In this document: piece after piece, positions 75 through 3,993 of the stretch
Layout: each line of letters begins with the position of its first letter
Numbering within the stretch: position 1 is the stretch's first letter
Origin: a virus
Lineage: Duplodnaviria; Heunggongvirae; Uroviricota; Caudoviricetes
IMG/VR virus record: IMGVR_UViG_2740892230_000039
Reading direction: 5' to 3' (one strand)
Length of the DNA: 3,993 nt
Translations under genes and position numbers: made by a program
Notes under the pieces: model-generated
The model's input: the letters and a program-made list of their open reading frames with translations, nothing else
The model's database searches: none
What the model was told of the DNA's origin: nothing

Positions 75-1361
75 TTACCCCGCTTTCTTATGGGGCATAC
101 ATGGGACACTTTCAGATAGTCTTTTGTTAAGGAGTTCTATCTGTTCGTGATTGTTGTCTTTCATCCATGCTCCGTAAACATTGAATACCATTTGTGCGTT
201 TGTGTGGCCCATCTGGCTTGCGATAAAACTAGGATTAGCTCCTGCGGCAAGTGACCAGCATGCATAAGTATGCCTGGATTGGTACGATTTTCTGTGTCTC
301 AGACCTGCGCGTTTTAAGATACTTGTCCATGACTCCCTGATGGAGTCAACCTTGTAGTGAGGTCCGGACAACTGCTGCTGTTTTGTTACCTGAGGACGAA
401 AAACAAAAGTGCATTTATGCACAGCAGTTCTCCCATATTCCCTCTGCTTCACCTCTACAGAATGTTGCTTTCCAAGCATGGTCATTTCCGCCTGGCTTTT
501 AAGAGCATCAATAGCTGGTTGAACCAGATGAATTGTCCTTCCGGTGCCTGCATCGGTTTTTGGTGGAGTGAATTCGCCAAGTTTTGTATAATTTCTACGG
601 ATGGTTATAGTCCTTGCTTTAAGGTCTATATCTTCCCATGCCAGCGATACCAACTCCCCGTGACGAATACCCGTGTATACAGCGAGAATCCACAGGTTTT
701 TTGTTTGTTGATGACGGCAAGCCTCAATAAAACGAATAAATTCGTCACGGGTGAGAGGATCTGGTTTTACCTTGGACTTTTTTAAGGGAGCCAGACCGTT
801 AAATGGGTTTCCTGAGGTATAACCATTATCTGTTGCAAATTGAAACATTCCAGCTATGGTTGTCATATAGTAGTTTACCGTGACCACTGAGCGCCCTTTT
901 ATGGAAGAAGTCTTTCCATTAGAAAGCTTTTGGTAACCGGTCAACAAATCTCTCCTTACGAAAAGTAAATCCTCTTTTGTTATGGATGAAACCAGTTTTT
1001 TTTCACCTAACATTGGTAACATGTTTTTAATTACTGACTGGTAACGGTTAAGTGCATTCGCACAAATCTCAATTTTCTTAAGGTCCAACCATTTTTCCGA
1101 AAGTGCCTTAACGGTTATCTCTCTTTTTCCCAGACCAAAGTGTTTCAGGTTAGGGGAATTAGGGAACTGCGCGGCGTAGTCGAAACTCCCCATTCTGATT
1201 GCAAAACAAACGGAAGTGCGAAGTTCACCAGCGATCTTCCGGTTTTTGGCTGTGTCAGGAACACCGAGGTTTTCTCTGACACGTTTGCCATTATAGTGAA
1301 ACCATATACGGAGTGATCCTCCATGGTTTTCAACGCCTGTCGGGTATGATGCGTTACTCAT
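75..1361 (-). CDS. int: Tyrosine-type site-specific recombinase (phage integrase), 428 aa
   Basis: Long uninterrupted minus-strand ORF. N-terminal arm-binding-like region (PTGVENHGGSLRIWFHYNGKRVRE). C-terminal catalytic-domain motifs in the expected order: Arg in AVYTGIRHGEL, second Arg in SYQSRHTYACW, His in QMGHTNAQ, catalytic Tyr in FNVYGAW. GGGAGG lies 4 nt upstream of the ATG. An excisionase-like gene sits immediately upstream on the same strand, the classical xis-int arrangement. Confidence 0.9.
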   Translation of the reverse strand: MSNASYPTGVENHGGSLRIWFHYNGKRVRENLGVPDTAKNRKIAGELRTSVCFAIRMGSFDYAAQFPNSPNLKHFGLGKREITVKALSEKWLDLKKIEICANALNRYQSVIKNMLPMLGEKKLVSSITKEDLLFVRRDLLTGYQKLSNGKTSSIKGRSVVTVNYYMTTIAGMFQFATDNGYTSGNPFNGLAPLKKSKVKPDPLTRDEFIRFIEACRHQQTKNLWILAVYTGIRHGELVSLAWEDIDLKARTITIRRNYTKLGEFTPPKTDAGTGRTIHLVQPAIDALKSQAEMTMLGKQHSVEVKQREYGRTAVHKCTFVFRPQVTKQQQLSGPHYKVDSIRESWTSILKRAGLRHRKSYQSRHTYACWSLAAGANPSFIASQMGHTNAQMVFNVYGAWMKDNNHEQIELLNKRLSESVPCMPHKKAG

Positions 1362-1394: not shown

Positions 1395-1649
1395 TTAACC
1401 GGAACTTGCATTTTTGGCACCTGGTTGTTTCTGGTTTTCGATCCATCGCATAATTTCTTCGATGTTGTACAGGCATTCACTGTAATGCCCAGGATCACCT
1501 TCTACAGCGTAATGGCGGTATTCTTTTCCCTGCATCCATGACTTTCTTCTGGCCCGCTCGATGGTGCCGGGCTTTAGCCCTGTTGATGCAATAAGGACTC
1601 TCTCCGTACACCATTTGCTGGGGGTTATCTGATAGATGATTGTCTGCAT
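1395..1649 (-). CDS. xis: Excisionase-like recombination directionality factor, 84 aa
   Basis: Small basic protein directly upstream of int on the same strand with a 33-bp gap. The W...ST...R...W..GKEY pattern (KWCTERVLIASTGLKPGTIERARRKSWMQGKEYRHY) resembles excisionase-like winged-helix proteins of enterobacterial prophages. Assignment is from memory of the family and gene position, not from a search. Confidence 0.6.
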   Translation of the reverse strand: MQTIIYQITPSKWCTERVLIASTGLKPGTIERARRKSWMQGKEYRHYAVEGDPGHYSECLYNIEEIMRWIENQKQPGAKNASSG

Positions 1650-1667
1650 GCCAACCTCATAAAACTT

Positions 1668-1802
1668 TCATCCACGGCAGTGGAACCACACGTCAAACAT
1701 TCGTTTCACAACTTCACGGCAGTAGAAGCCGTCGACATCACGGGTCAGGTCGTAGCGATTGCCGAATGTCTTGCGAACCCAGAACTCAAAAGCCGTATGC
1801 AT
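1668..1802 (-). CDS. Hypothetical small protein, 44 aa (MHTAFEFWVRKTFGNRYDLTRDVDGFYCREVVKRMFDVWFHCRG); not in the supplied ORF track
   Basis: Hand-translated. ATG at 1802-1800 is preceded by GGAGGTGA with a 3-nt spacer; this Shine-Dalgarno contains the TGA stop of the upstream 80-aa ORF. Its own stop at 1670-1668 lies 18 nt before the xis ATG. Fits the operon-wide tight packing. Confidence 0.35.
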   Translation of the reverse strand: MHTAFEFWVRKTFGNRYDLTRDVDGFYCREVVKRMFDVWFHCRG

Positions 1803-1805
1803 GTA

Positions 1806-2048
1806 TCACCTCCGTTGCATTGCGCGTAATTTTTTCAGGCGCATTTCCTGCTCAGTGCCCGCCAGAATTTTGCGGTACTCCTGTTGGTCAATATGTTCGA
1901 ACAGGTTGTTGAACTCACCAATGCGTACCCGTCCGGAGCGCCCGTCCATGCGTCGAAAGAACACTGAGTGCTGAGTACTGCGAGTAATCACCACAGGGTA
2001 TCCGGCTCTGTCCGTGTATATCTGACCACGTTGAATCAGAGCGAACAT
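1806..2048 (-). CDS. Hypothetical prophage protein, 80 aa
   Basis: Minus-strand ORF co-oriented with int and xis and packed tightly against its neighbours (4 nt after the upstream stop, 3 nt before the downstream start). GGGGA lies upstream of the ATG. No family recognised by eye. Confidence 0.5.
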   Translation of the reverse strand: MFALIQRGQIYTDRAGYPVVITRSTQHSVFFRRMDGRSGRVRIGEFNNLFEHIDQQEYRKILAGTEQEMRLKKLRAMQRR

Positions 2049-2052
2049 TCCT

Positions 2053-2139
2053 TTATCCCCAGCGGAAAAGCGAATACAGAATAAATGCCACCGCTATTGC
2101 AACTCCAACTGCGGTGAATGCTTCAGGCCAATTCATCAT
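2053..2139 (-). CDS. Hypothetical 28-aa hydrophobic peptide (MMNWPEAFTAVGVAIAVAFILYSLFRWG), predicted single transmembrane helix; not in the supplied ORF track
   Basis: Hand-translated. AGGAGGTGA lies immediately upstream. The ATG at 2139-2137 overlaps the TGA stop of the upstream 240-aa ORF (2138-2136) in an ATGA arrangement. A 19-residue uninterrupted hydrophobic stretch is followed by RWG. Stop TAA at 2055-2053, 4 nt before the next start. Confidence 0.35.
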   Translation of the reverse strand: MMNWPEAFTAVGVAIAVAFILYSLFRWG

Positions 2140-2858
2140 TTCACCTCCTGCGGCGGTTCTGGTAGCTGCATCCAGTGGGTTACCTCTTTGAGATACAGGT
2201 CTTCGCCATCACCGTCATCCCAAGTGGGCTTGCCATCATTAAACCAGTCGCCATATACGCCGACCTGAGTGTTGGGGATGTTTGGTGGGTAGTTGTTTTT
2301 AAAGTCAGCTGCTAACACATAGCATTGTCGCTCTCCCATTTCAGGCATTCGCTCACTACAGCTTATCCAACCATCCGGAGTTACCGGATAGTTGCCATTC
2401 ACAAGGTCAGCTCGAACATATAGCGTGTCATCATGGTGTTGATTGTGGCTGCACCACGTTAATTCGCTTAACTNNNNNNNNNNCTCAGGCCACTGGCGCT
2501 CCATGTTGATCTTCAATTTATCTTCCATAGCAGCGGTAATTTCAGCATCGCTGATGCCAGCACGGCGCTGTGCATCCCACAACAGAAACTGCATATCAGC
2601 CCACTCGCTAAGATCGTCTGNNNNNNNNNNCGTTTGCAGCCAGATATGGGCTGGCGCATCTTGGCAAGGTGTATTAACTGGCAACTTGTAAGTTTGGCTT
2701 ACAGGTTCTGCACTATCAGCCTTGCGGCGCTCCTGTAGCTCGCGCAGAGCCGCTACAACATAATGGCTATTGTGCTGGTCAGCCCACAGAATGAGCCGAA
2801 TCAACGTTGCATTTGAAACGTATTCGTCTGTTAGTTTGCTATTGGTAAAAGTGGTCAT
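2136..2858 (-). CDS. Ea22-like prophage protein, 240 aa as translated through two N-runs; C-terminal W/D/G/P-rich region reminiscent of DUF551
   Basis: Minus-strand ORF with AAGGTGA 7 nt upstream of the ATG. The N-terminus MTTFT parallels MTTIT of the upstream paralog. An internal 45-aa module (DDLSEW...ERQWPE) is shared with the upstream gene. The C-terminal region (YPVTPDGWISCSERMPE...GVYGDWFNDGKPTWDDGDGEDLY...WMQLPEPP) matches my recollection of the DUF551 domain found in Ea22-like phage proteins. The true length is uncertain because the ORF is interrupted by N-runs at 2474-2483 and 2621-2630. Confidence 0.55.
   Translation of the reverse strand: MTTFTNSKLTDEYVSNATLIRLILWADQHNSHYVVAALRELQERRKADSAEPVSQTYKLPVNTPCQDAPAHIWLQTXXXXDDLSEWADMQFLLWDAQRRAGISDAEITAAMEDKLKINMERQWPEXXXXLSELTWCSHNQHHDDTLYVRADLVNGNYPVTPDGWISCSERMPEMGERQCYVLAADFKNNYPPNIPNTQVGVYGDWFNDGKPTWDDGDGEDLYLKEVTHWMQLPEPPQEVK
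2474..2483. other. Run of 10 N (gap or masked bases)
   Basis: Directly visible in the sequence. Lies immediately left of repeat copy A. Confidence 1.
2484..2620. repeat. Copy A of a diverged 137-bp direct repeat (coding module), bounded on both sides by 10-N runs
   Basis: Aligns without gaps to 2886-3022, with 131 of 137 positions identical. The six mismatches are at 2484, 2499, 2522, 2550, 2556 and 2586. Confidence 0.95.
2621..2630. other. Run of 10 N (gap or masked bases)
   Basis: Directly visible in the sequence. Lies immediately right of repeat copy A. Confidence 1.
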
Positions 2859-2870
2859 AGCTATTTCACC

Positions 2871-3251
2871 TTAATNNNNNNNNNNTTCAGGCCACTGGCG
2901 TTCCATGTTGATCTTCAATTTATTTTCCATAGCAGCGGTAATTTCAGCATCACTGATACCAGCACGGCGCTGTGCATCCCACAACAGGAACTGCATATCA
3001 GCCCACTCGCTAAGATCGTCTGGTTCGGCTGCGGCTTCCAGTGCCTCTTTTGAGAGGTGTTTCAGTGGACCAATGGGGCCAACGCAGCCAAATGTGGAGT
3101 CAGACCATTTGGCATGCTCGTGGCGAATCTGTTCGCGTTCCAGTGATGCCAGTGCAATTCGTGCCAGTTCCATTTGTTCGCCACGAGTAAGCCCGTTTTC
3201 AAGCGGATTTTTAATGAACAATTCAATACGTTCTTTGGTAATAGTGGTCAT
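2871..3251 (-). CDS. Ea22-like prophage protein, upstream paralog, 126 aa as translated; C-terminus undetermined because the last four codons fall in an N-run
   Basis: The ATG at 3251-3249 overlaps the TGA stop of the upstream 69-aa ORF (ATGA). GAGGA lies 7 nt upstream. The N-terminal part is charged and helical-looking (ERIELF...EQMELARIALASLEREQIRHEHAKW), followed by the shared DDLSEWADMQFLLWDAQRRAGISDAEITAAMENKLKINMERQWPE module. The apparent stop at 2873-2871 comes directly after the 10-N run, so the real end is unknown. Confidence 0.5.
   Translation of the reverse strand: MTTITKERIELFIKNPLENGLTRGEQMELARIALASLEREQIRHEHAKWSDSTFGCVGPIGPLKHLSKEALEAAAEPDDLSEWADMQFLLWDAQRRAGISDAEITAAMENKLKINMERQWPEXXXX
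2876..2885. other. Run of 10 N (gap or masked bases)
   Basis: Directly visible in the sequence. Lies immediately left of repeat copy B, between the two Ea22-like genes. Confidence 1.
2886..3022. repeat. Copy B of the diverged 137-bp direct repeat, preceded by a 10-N run
   Basis: Aligns without gaps to 2484-2620. Corresponding mismatch positions are 2886, 2901, 2924, 2952, 2958 and 2988. Confidence 0.95.
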
Positions 3252-3457
3252 GTGTTAATCCTCAAAACTTTATGCCCGGGCGCAAAAGTACGTGTTTTGT
3301 CTTTGCTTATTCGCCACCCGTCTTTACGGGCCTCTTTTGCACAACCAGACCATGACGTACCGATATACTCACCGAAGTCTGGCACTGGATATACACCTTC
3401 CGTACACTGGCGACAATCACAATAGAGATGCATGGTGTAACTTGCAGCGATAGCCAT
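3248..3457 (-). CDS. Hypothetical small Cys-rich protein, 69 aa (C-x-C-x2-C then a distal Cys and two His)
   Basis: Strong ribosome-binding site (AAAGGAGAG, then a 4-nt spacer, then ATG). The start is 1 nt after the stop of the upstream 62-aa ORF, and the stop overlaps the downstream start. Possible metal-binding motif HLYCDCRQC ... SGC ... PGH. Confidence 0.5.
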   Translation of the reverse strand: MAIAASYTMHLYCDCRQCTEGVYPVPDFGEYIGTSWSGCAKEARKDGWRISKDKTRTFAPGHKVLRINT

Positions 3458-3458
3458 A

Positions 3459-3647
3459 TCACTCTCCTTTAGTCCGCAAGTAGTTTTTCCAGCGGTTTTG
3501 CGCCGCGCTGGGCTTTTTGCAACAACTGTGACCCATCACCCCGCAACACCCCATCAACCTCACTCGTCTGTTACTAATCCTCACCCATCGCCAGACCCCA
3601 ACACCGTTTCTGCGAGCTAACAGAATCTTTGCTTTACGGTTTTTCAT
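3459..3647 (-). CDS. Questionable ORF, 62 aa, Arg/Trp/Gly/Cys-rich (contains GCCGVMGHSCC); coding status uncertain
   Basis: For coding: AGGAGAG 7 nt upstream of the ATG, and the stop is 1 nt before the next gene's ATG. Against: the ORF lies in a strongly purine-rich, degenerately repetitive stretch (C-rich on the plus strand, about 3530-3606) that would yield G/W/R/V codons by chance, and it contains a terminator-like hairpin. Confidence 0.3.
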   Translation of the reverse strand: MKNRKAKILLARRNGVGVWRWVRISNRRVRLMGCCGVMGHSCCKKPSAAQNRWKNYLRTKGE

Positions 3648-3819
3648 CGTTTTGCTCTCCTGCGTCTCTTTGCTGCTCGTCGTGCCGCTGCAATACCGGT
3701 ATGGCGGCGCTTTGGTGCCGGGATGATGTTGTCAGCTATCAGGACATGTGGCTTTGCAATTAGCGCAGAAGCCCAAAAACGAGTCGGGTACGGTAACAAG
3801 CCGATACATGCCACACGCA

Positions 3820-3993
3820 CTACTCACCCTCTTTGATGCGAATGCCTGCGGCGCGTGGCACATTAACTTCCACGATGCGCACTGTTGGTTTGTACATCTC
3901 AATCGCTGTCAGCCAGTCAGCTCCTGTCATGCGCTTTTCCGCATCGCCATTAGTCCACTGAACCGGTACACCAATAGCCTTCATCGCGATTTC
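3820..3993 (-). CDS. 3' end of a gene entering from beyond the right edge (C-terminal 57 aa: EIAMKAIGVPVQWTNGDAEKRMTGADWLTAIEMYKPTVRIVEVNVPRAAGIRIKEGE); product not recognised
   Basis: Hand-translated minus-strand frame, open from the window edge at 3993 to a TAG stop at 3822-3820. Same orientation as the rest of the operon. Too short to appear in the supplied ORF track. Confidence 0.45.
   Translation of the reverse strand, partial: EIAMKAIGVPVQWTNGDAEKRMTGADWLTAIEMYKPTVRIVEVNVPRAAGIRIKEGE

Follow-up and report, generated by a model that had tools for sequence, protein, structure and literature searches.

Lambdoid phages carry a region of small genes, the exo-xis region, between the recombination genes exo and bet and the genes xis and int. 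Its conserved block comprises orf60a, orf63, orf61, orf73, and ea22, and the published layout (PMC8614690; PMC3824215) is also that of the relatives of the DNA described here. Early transcription of the exo-xis genes starts at pL; the genes are non-essential and affect both lysogenisation and the induction of the prophage (PMC8614690; PMC3824215). The DNA analysed here, referred to as the window, is the whole 3993-nucleotide stretch of the IMG/VR virus record IMGVR_UViG_2740892230_000039, from a virus of the class Caudoviricetes. A preliminary description, made from the letters alone, interpreted positions 1395–3993 as a single co-translated cassette of accessory genes. Comparison with related prophages makes it highly probable that the window is a mis-scaffolded draft, in which four contigs originating from at least two prophages are linked by placeholders of ten N. 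The best overall explanation, to which we assign a probability of about 0.8, is that the window is a scaffold of exo-xis pieces whose early genes are packed in the ordinary way.

Runs of N and the joins across them

All genes in the window are encoded on the minus strand. Three runs of exactly ten N, at positions 2474–2483, 2621–2630, and 2876–2885, cut the window into four pieces, 1–2473, 2484–2620, 2631–2875, and 2886–3993. Each of the runs is positioned on a break in synteny relative to every relative. Submitters of assemblies commonly mark a gap by a minimal placeholder of ten N. The relatives used for comparison include the yehV (mlrA) prophage of E. coli 2013C-3264 (L002), another complete relative (L001), phage phiV10 (L003), and a prophage locus of E. 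coli O104:H4 (L007). The features on both sides of the runs, including two apparent open reading frames (ORFs), are the following:

2136–2473, minus strand: C-terminal part, containing the DUF551 domain, of the true 196-residue gene (Pfam DUF551, 4e-20)
2474–2483, no strand: putative scaffold gap 1, ten N, at a break in synteny
2484–2620, minus strand: 137-bp internal segment of a DUF550 (dATP/dGTP pyrophosphohydrolase-like) gene of another prophage, probably misplaced (100% identity to NZ_CP027544.1 1364630–1364766)
2621–2630, no strand: putative scaffold gap 2, ten N; the relatives have 25 nucleotides between 2473 and 2631
2631–2858, minus strand: N-terminal part of the true 196-residue DUF551 gene (2631–2875 corresponds to L002 4105–4349 at 100% identity)
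2861–2875, minus strand: last four codons (IKVK) and stop codon (2861–2863) of a 63-residue gene, the remainder of which is outside the window
2876–2885, no strand: putative scaffold gap 3, ten N, at a break in synteny, with an out-of-frame join
2886–3251, minus strand: first 122 codons, containing the DUF550 domain, of a 209-residue DUF550–DUF551 fusion (Pfam dATP-dGTP_PPHyd, 2e-36)
2136–2858, minus strand: apparent 240-residue ORF (DUF551 and part of DUF550), cut twice by runs of N
2871–3251, minus strand: apparent 126-residue ORF (DUF550), cut once by a run of N

Positions 2–2473 of the window correspond to L002 1608–4079 with 99.96% identity. Between the sequences equivalent to positions 2473 and 2631, all relatives have the 25 nucleotides CGCCATCTTCTGGCCATACTCCAGC (L002 4080–4104), and the L002 protein reads across this join as ...HIWLQTAGVWPEDGELSELTW..., within one 196-residue DUF551 gene. 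The 25-nucleotide join is present in 30 of 30 complete genomes among the matches listed, in all 14 IMG/VR contigs that hold the end of the first piece, and in each of the nine metagenome contigs found with a spacing-tolerant pattern. Searches of 5426 complete E. coli genomes and of viral, genome-representative, and metagenome contigs gave no instance of the join of 2473 to 2484 that is present in the window. The 25-nucleotide join served as the positive control for the searches of contigs and was recovered.

The join across the third run of N (2875/2886) was also found in none of the 5426 complete E. coli genomes. At this join, the last 15 nucleotides of the 63-residue gene lead, in a different frame, into the interior of a DUF550 gene. 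The stop codon of the apparent 126-residue ORF (2871–2873) falls out of frame within the last codons of the 63-residue gene, and it is accidental, because gap 3 joins two genes in different frames. The apparent 12-nucleotide gap between ORFs at 2859–2870 is an artefact of the same scaffold gap. The first nucleotides of the two DUF550 pieces of the window, 2484 and 2886, are homologous to each other, and each comes just after a run of N; the chimeric 240-residue protein contains only positions 37–83 of the 97-position DUF550 profile. The comparisons identify the 240-residue and 126-residue ORFs as scaffold chimeras. Because two ORFs of the chain are chimeras, a cassette that extends across 2474–2885 cannot be claimed to be co-transcribed.

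Pieces 1–2473 and 2631–2875 are, according to their identity and synteny with relatives, the left arm of a lambdoid prophage of the Stx1/BP-4795 type integrated beside mlrA (yehV). The integrase gene is identical in L001 and L002, where it abuts mlrA. The 137-bp piece (2484–2620) is a 96.3% copy of window positions 2887–3022, and it has a 100% match in a DUF550–DUF551 fusion gene of a second prophage of 2013C-3264, located beside dsdC/torI. In this closest complete genome, the prophage carrying the match is 341 kb from the yehV prophage. At its C-terminal end, the fusion gene holding the match carries a DUF551 module that is almost the same as window positions 2152–2400. A DUF551 repeat that ends the first piece and is shared by two prophages provides the setting in which a short-read scaffolder interleaves contigs, and it would have misled the scaffolder here. 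The right-hand 1.1 kb of the window (2886–3993) most probably belongs to another prophage, and its sequence is 100% identical to that of the P22-like prophage of E. coli O104:H4 and 55989. In L007, the DUF550 frame runs for 264 bases further to give the 209-residue DUF550–DUF551 protein, which is followed by Eag and TorI. The genes upstream of the fourth piece in L007 encode Ea22-like, DUF2737, DUF5405, anti-RecBCD, ERF, kil, and cIII. The sequences of the window are, piece by piece, 99.9–100% identical to prophages in public complete genomes.

Several points weigh against the scaffold explanation. The mis-joining has been deduced from comparison with relatives and not from direct evidence in the source reads. 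Both runs of N within the 240-residue ORF keep the frame, for which there would be a chance of about one in nine if the joins were arbitrary, and a real mosaic gene fused in frame would look the same. Given the strong mosaicism of lambdoid phages, it is not impossible that the arrangement exists and is seen nowhere else. Furthermore, pL transcription of the pieces is inferred from lambda and translational coupling from the geometry of the junctions.

If the arrangement were real, the window would come from a genuine mosaic prophage with a DUF551 gene containing an in-frame insert of 44 DUF550 codons, and the runs of N would be tiny unresolved stretches. The truncated DUF550 gene and the 69-, 62-, and 58-residue genes would then be located directly upstream, and the whole 2.6 kb would form one operon, as proposed in the preliminary description. 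The 240-residue ORF is indeed open and in frame across both runs, and the insert is read in the correct DUF550 frame. The 25 nucleotides of the relatives encode ...VWPEDGE..., similar to the WPEPKDGE that ends the DUF550 segment, so recombination through micro-homology is conceivable, and mosaicism is common in the exo-xis region. However, none of the three joins occurs in any other sequence of the collections searched, and all three runs of N are exactly on synteny breaks. The DUF550 pieces share left ends (2484 and 2886) that both follow a run of N, gap 3 places the final 15 nucleotides of one gene against the interior of a second gene in a different frame, and the DUF550 part of the 240-residue chimera would be limited to positions 37–83 of 97 of the profile. 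In addition, the best-matching genome contains the 137-bp piece, with 100% identity, in another of its prophages. We consider a genuine mosaic arrangement very unlikely. A variant of it, in which the runs of N are exact ten-nucleotide masks over a real in-frame mosaic gene, was considered because the frame is kept, and was rejected as the main reading because the third join is out of frame, the two DUF550 pieces have identical left ends, and the 137-bp piece matches the other prophage at 100%.

The scaffold explanation is thus preferred. The proposal of a single co-translated cassette is not supported, because synteny breaks at each of the three runs of N, no collection contains the joins, and the pieces match different prophages at 100%. 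ORFs, "fusion proteins", and operon structures that are read across runs of N in drafts of prophage-rich E. coli are unreliable; in the window, two ORFs are chimeric and about half of the proposed cassette comes from another prophage.

Exo-xis organization and packing of the genes

The remaining features of the window are the following:

75–1361, minus strand: tyrosine integrase (Pfam Arm-DNA-bind_2, 2e-24; Phage_integrase, 6e-18)
1395–1649, minus strand: excisionase of 84 residues, DUF1233, RefSeq name xisR (Pfam, 2e-29; phrog_539 "excisionase", 1.6e-37)
1668–1802, minus strand: 44-residue protein, phrog_3871 (1.5e-31; RefSeq WP_000556584.1)
1806–2048, minus strand: 80-residue DUF4222 protein, isoelectric point (pI) 11.1 (Pfam DUF4222, 9e-16)
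2053–2139, minus strand: predicted 28-residue membrane peptide, no family match (ORF kept by diverged homologues; hydropathy)
3248–3457, minus strand: 69-residue protein, phrog_926 (3.6e-36)
3459–3647, minus strand: 62-residue very basic protein, phrog_1380, pI 11.7 (PHROG family; phiV10 paralogues)
3644–3820, minus strand: 58-residue arginine-rich protein, GTG start, phrog_13831, pI 12.0 (8e-41)
3820–3993, minus strand: last 57 codons of an Ead/Ea22-like gene, the rest of which is beyond the window (the full gene encodes 223 residues in O104:H4)

The integrase gene (75–1361) is outside the region covered by the preliminary description and constitutes the downstream end of the transcription unit. 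Several unrelated IMG/VR contigs (L008, L010, and L019) start at the first base of the window, about 74 nucleotides past the end of int. The shared contig start near mlrA suggests a recurrent break at a repeat or at the prophage–host boundary.

The gene order in L001 and L002 is int, xis, 44-residue gene, DUF4222, (28-residue ORF), DUF551, 63-residue gene, Ead/Ea22-like, TraR/DksA-like, small hypothetical, DUF1382, DUF1317, exo, and bet. The genes of 1395–2875 are positioned directly upstream of xis/int on the same strand, and the segment 2886–3993 natively adjoins torI. The far boundary of the exo-xis region, formed by the recombination genes, is outside the window; it is present in the complete relatives, including L007, where the order is Ea22-like, Abc2, and ERF. 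The only part of the conserved exo-xis block contained in the window is the C-terminus of the Ea22-like protein. Judged by its gene content and synteny, each real piece is part of the variable, xis-proximal half of a lambdoid exo-xis region. The comparison with the pL-distal region of lambda drawn in the preliminary description is right and holds for each piece, as indicated by synteny with L001, L002, BP-4795, and O104:H4.

The genes within the pieces are tightly packed, with 98.5% of the minus strand of 1395–3993 coding. The stop codon of one gene overlaps the start codon of the next as ATGA at 2136–2139, 3248–3251, and 3644–3647, and there is a one-nucleotide TAG/GTG overlap at 3820 between the stop codon of the Ea22-like gene and the start codon of the 58-residue gene. 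The intergenic gaps are one nucleotide at 3458, four nucleotides at 2049–2052, three nucleotides at 1803–1805, and 18 nucleotides at 1650–1667 before xis. The junction spacings across the region are therefore −4, −1, −4, +1, −4, +4, +3, and +18 nucleotides. The junctions listed in the preliminary description are all located where it placed them, and its statement that Shine–Dalgarno sequences are embedded in upstream coding ends is borne out by all nine testable starts having such a site, in most cases inside the preceding gene. The observation is accurate but incomplete: the runs of N, the 58-residue gene at 3644–3820, the overlaps at 3644–3647 and 3820, and the C-terminus of the Ea22-like protein were missed.

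The strength of the Shine–Dalgarno sites was calculated as the energy of pairing of the 16S ribosomal RNA tail with the 18 nucleotides upstream of each start. The duplex energies of the nine testable starts range from −5.5 to −11.6 kcal/mol, whereas 16–22% of all ATG/GTG/TTG codons on the minus strand reach −6 or −5 kcal/mol. Most of the sites coincide with the final codons of the gene upstream. The site of xis has an energy of −6.3 kcal/mol, the GGAGG of the 44-residue gene −10.8 kcal/mol, and the AGGAGGT of the 28-residue ORF −11.6 kcal/mol. A consensus scan of both strands of 1395–3993 identified no sigma-70-like sites, compared with 4.8 ± 2.2 in shuffled sequences, and there is no terminator-like site on the minus strand of this region. 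The tight packing and the Shine–Dalgarno sites exceed what is expected by chance.

The junctions do have a geometry that would allow translational coupling: stop codons overlap or nearly abut the next start codons, and the Shine–Dalgarno sites are mostly inside the upstream genes. By analogy with lambda, for which read-through by antitermination is described (PMC8614690), the genes of each piece would form the far end of an early leftward pL transcript that continues into xis and int. The lack of promoter-like sites and of minus-strand terminator-like sites in 1395–3993 is consistent with such a transcript. A ribosome that ends the translation of one gene could restart at the next one, and free ribosomes could also initiate directly. 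The products would be non-essential accessory proteins, and relatives from the equivalent region of lambda and Stx phages tune the lysis–lysogeny decision.

It is possible, at somewhat less than even odds, that the spacing reflects mere compaction of the genome, and that each gene is translated independently from its own Shine–Dalgarno site without functional coupling. The sites of the testable starts, at −5.5 to −11.6 kcal/mol, are sufficient for de novo initiation. Such spacing is general in phage operons. The gene content of the exo-xis region varies freely between phages, which argues against a fixed stoichiometric unit. However, the four overlaps (three ATGA and one of a single nucleotide) and the gaps of 1–4 nucleotides constitute the classic geometry of termination–reinitiation, and the geometry of the junctions is the same in BP-4795 and L002, although neither of these two points proves dependence. 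Independent initiation is just as plausible as reinitiation, because every gene has a good Shine–Dalgarno site of its own. Such packing is ordinary for the early operons of phages and does not point to a dedicated mechanism; the exo-xis organization has already been described, and tight packing is expected in it.

The small proteins

Each of the small ORFs is retained in relatives that have 72–92% DNA identity to the window. The coding potential of the ORFs was evaluated from the numbers of substitutions at codon positions 1, 2, and 3 relative to a named relative. Compared with BP-4795, the numbers are 5, 7, and 16 for the 44-residue gene and 6, 6, and 17 for the 80-residue gene. Compared with phiV10, they are 5, 4, and 12 for the 69-residue gene, 0, 2, and 8 for the 58-residue gene (eight of ten at the third position), and 4, 1, and 8 for the 62-residue gene. 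The coding signal of the 62-residue gene is weaker than those of the other small genes, with 11, 10, and 10 substitutions relative to PhiR49_2. All of the 6–8 substitutions in xis relative to its relatives are synonymous. The 44-residue ORF, which begins three nucleotides past the stop codon of the DUF4222 gene, is retained in relatives with 79–85% DNA identity.

The RefSeq annotation of O104:H4 has no gene over 3458–3820 (L007 5572–5935), and the 62-residue and 58-residue ORFs tile this interval. Both ORFs belong to PHROG families, and the changes in the 58-residue ORF are mostly synonymous. A search of the whole window against Rfam with E values up to 1 gave no match, and there is thus no Rfam RNA that accounts for the 363 nucleotides (3458–3820) left unannotated by RefSeq. 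The 58-residue protein is a homologue of phiV10 p49, and its C-terminus, KRRHTGIAAARRAAKRRRRAKR, is an arginine-rich tail. The 62-residue ORF is recombinant: it begins like phiV10 p50, of which it has the N-terminal part, and ends with the C-terminal part of p51, a tandem paralogue of p50 (L003 1515–1885). About 150 nucleotides between p50 and p51 are absent from the window, and a shared stretch of 32 nucleotides, 3484–3515, is positioned at the crossover. The neighbouring Ea22-like protein matches Pfam Ead_Ea22 with an E value of 4e-45 when the full-length L007 protein is used.

The 28-residue ORF very likely encodes a real and conserved peptide that is predicted to span the membrane once. 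Its start codon overlaps the stop codon of the DUF551 gene (ATGA), and its Shine–Dalgarno site is the strongest of the region. The ORF exactly fills an 87-nucleotide interval free of annotated coding sequences in the RefSeq records of L001, L002, and BP-4795. The ends of the peptide, M-x-W-P-[ED]-A ... V-Y-S-I-C-R-W-G, and its hydrophobic core are conserved in the diverged homologues L006, L022, and L024, and the maximum of the Kyte–Doolittle hydropathy over 19 residues is 2.28. Matches to the peptide were found by tblastn against phages in 92 phage records, including 933W, VT2-Sakai, and Min27. Together with the membership of the 80-residue protein in the family of RgdR, this widespread membrane peptide of 27–28 residues, which is skipped by the RefSeq annotations examined, may be worth retaining as a finding.

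The 80-residue protein belongs to the family DUF4222 (PF13973; 57.6 bits compared with a cut-off of 27, E value 9e-16), of which one member, RgdR, has been studied. RgdR is a 99-residue basic protein of a P4-like element of enterohaemorrhagic E. coli O157:H7; it acts positively on the LEE1 promoter and on type III secretion, and negatively on motility (PMC3378721; PMC10877973). The RGD motif has been reported to be important for its activity (PMC3378721). RgdR (ECs1581) matches DUF4222 with 82 bits and an E value of 2e-23; however, the pairwise similarity of the 80-residue protein to RgdR is weak, with 37% identity over 27 residues and an E value of 0.009. The 80-residue protein lacks the RGD tripeptide: the aligned residues are R7-G8-Q9, and Q9 is invariant across 17 close homologues. 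Its AlphaFold2 model, with a predicted local distance difference test (pLDDT) score of 86, contains a small SH3-like β-barrel followed by a long C-terminal helix. The fold matches have E values of 0.01 or worse and template modelling scores of about 0.5, and they are to generic PWWP, KOW, MscS beta, and TraI domains, so no function was read from them. The kinship with RgdR is a lead suggested by family membership and not an assignment. If functional, the link to RgdR would connect Stx1-type prophages to the regulation of host virulence. It has been considered that the 28-residue peptide targets the envelope of the host and inhibits growth or excludes other phages, for example, and that the 80-residue protein is an RgdR-like co-regulator, through which Stx1-type prophages would affect virulence or motility genes of the host; we regard such host-directed roles as unlikely.

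The DUF550 sequence of the 2871–3251 ORF covers positions 1–82 of the 97-position profile (PF04447), where it is cut by gap 3, and that of 2484–2620 covers only positions 37–83. The DUF550 region of the intact O104:H4 gene matches several PHROG families. DUF550 is a MazG-like, all-alpha NTP pyrophosphohydrolase family that owes its Pfam name to the dATP/dGTP pyrophosphohydrolases of phages, and the match to the structure of the enzyme MazZ (7ODY) is insignificant (E value 0.41). A pattern E-x-x-E ... E-x-x-D (KEALE ... EWAD) can be read in the DUF550 sequence, and it may correspond to the metal-binding motif of MazG. The true DUF551 gene has ...VWPEDGE... at the position where the DUF550–DUF551 fusions have ...QWPEPKDGE..., and the gene containing only DUF551 may be derived from a fusion gene by loss of most of the DUF550 domain. 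The 63-residue gene (MNGQISIV...NVEIKVK, then stop) is upstream of the DUF551 gene in the complete relatives (L002 4335–4526 and L004 2965–3156). The NCBI annotation splits the fusion, a single in-frame ORF (L001 3742–4572 and L007 4737–5366), into an N-terminal part called a "partial hypothetical" pseudogene, and a DUF550 coding sequence with a non-standard start. A fusion in L036 (3198–3866) is similarly split, and its span translates without an internal stop. The splitting looks like an annotation quirk and not biology.

The 69-residue protein contains the cysteines C13, C15, and C18 (C-x-C-x-x-C), which are invariant in 15 homologues from Escherichia, Salmonella, Kosakonia, and Pantoea, together with a nearly invariant H62. 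Its AlphaFold2 model has a pLDDT score of 82 and no fold match in the PDB. These residues suggest that the protein may form a small metal-binding fold.

The preliminary description regarded the small proteins as candidates for uncharacterised host-interaction functions, in a region of the kind where host-takeover and anti-defence genes reside. Profile searches mapped none of the small ORFs to a characterised housekeeping function of phages and so did not refute that proposal; however, none of the searches directly supports host takeover or anti-defence, and the sole functional lead is the kinship of the DUF4222 protein with RgdR. A block of this kind would be an island of genes acting against host immunity or shutting off host functions. 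It is positioned where lambdoid phages keep non-essential early genes, MazZ, a dATP/dGTP pyrophosphohydrolase of phages, belongs to the DUF550 family, an anti-RecBCD gene and kil are located a few genes further upstream in O104:H4, and the family of the 80-residue protein includes a host regulator, RgdR. On the other hand, none of the ten proteins has a PADLOC match with an E value up to 0.01, in a library that covers defence and not anti-defence; NCBIfam gave only one sub-threshold chance match; and all the small proteins are in PHROG families of unknown function. PDB sequence searches with the 80-residue, 69-residue, DUF550–DUF551, and Ea22-like proteins gave no significant match, and no informative solved structure was matched by sequence or fold. 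Moreover, the similarity to MazZ is insignificant, and the exo-xis genes that have been studied act on the lysis–lysogeny decision and not on defence. We consider an anti-defence or host-takeover island quite unlikely.

Comparison with known systems

RgdR and the 80-residue protein are both small, very basic, prophage-borne members of DUF4222, and the R-G of the RGD motif aligns between them. They differ in length (99 compared with 80 residues), in the motif (RGD compared with RGQ), and in location, since the gene of RgdR is in a P4-like element beside a primase gene and not in an exo-xis region.

The segment ORF1–ORF7 of BP-4795 has 94.7% identity to window positions 1395–2473 together with 2631–2875, and the same gene order and junction spacings. 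The yehV Stx1 prophages YYZ-2008 and VT1-Sakai (Sp15) have 99.2–99.3% identity over 1395–2397, compared with 99.96–100% for L002. By contrast to the window, BP-4795 and the yehV Stx1 prophages contain 25 nucleotides in place of the ten N, 137 bp, and ten N, and they continue with the 63-residue gene and an Ea22-like gene instead of the DUF550, 69-, 62-, and 58-residue genes. The P22-like prophage of O104:H4 and 55989, which is located next to the csc genes and torI, has the same order of Ea22-like, 58-residue, 62-residue, 69-residue, and DUF550–DUF551 genes as the right-hand part of the window. However, its fusion gene is complete (209 residues) and is followed by Eag and the excisionase-like TorI instead of by genes of the yehV type.

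The exo-xis regions of lambda and Stx phages, which have been studied by the Wegrzyn and Donaldson laboratories, differ from the window in that the window contains only the "variable downstream" part; ea8.5, orf61, orf63, and orf60a are not in it, and its DUF4222, DUF551, DUF550, and 28-, 44-, 58-, 62-, and 69-residue proteins have not been studied in the literature on the lambda exo-xis region. The conserved block (orf60a/DUF1317, orf63/DUF1382, and the TraR/DksA-like orf73) is located just upstream in the complete relatives. The window shares with the described exo-xis regions the position between the recombination genes and xis-int, the location on the same strand, an Ea22-like gene, and small, tightly packed, non-essential genes.

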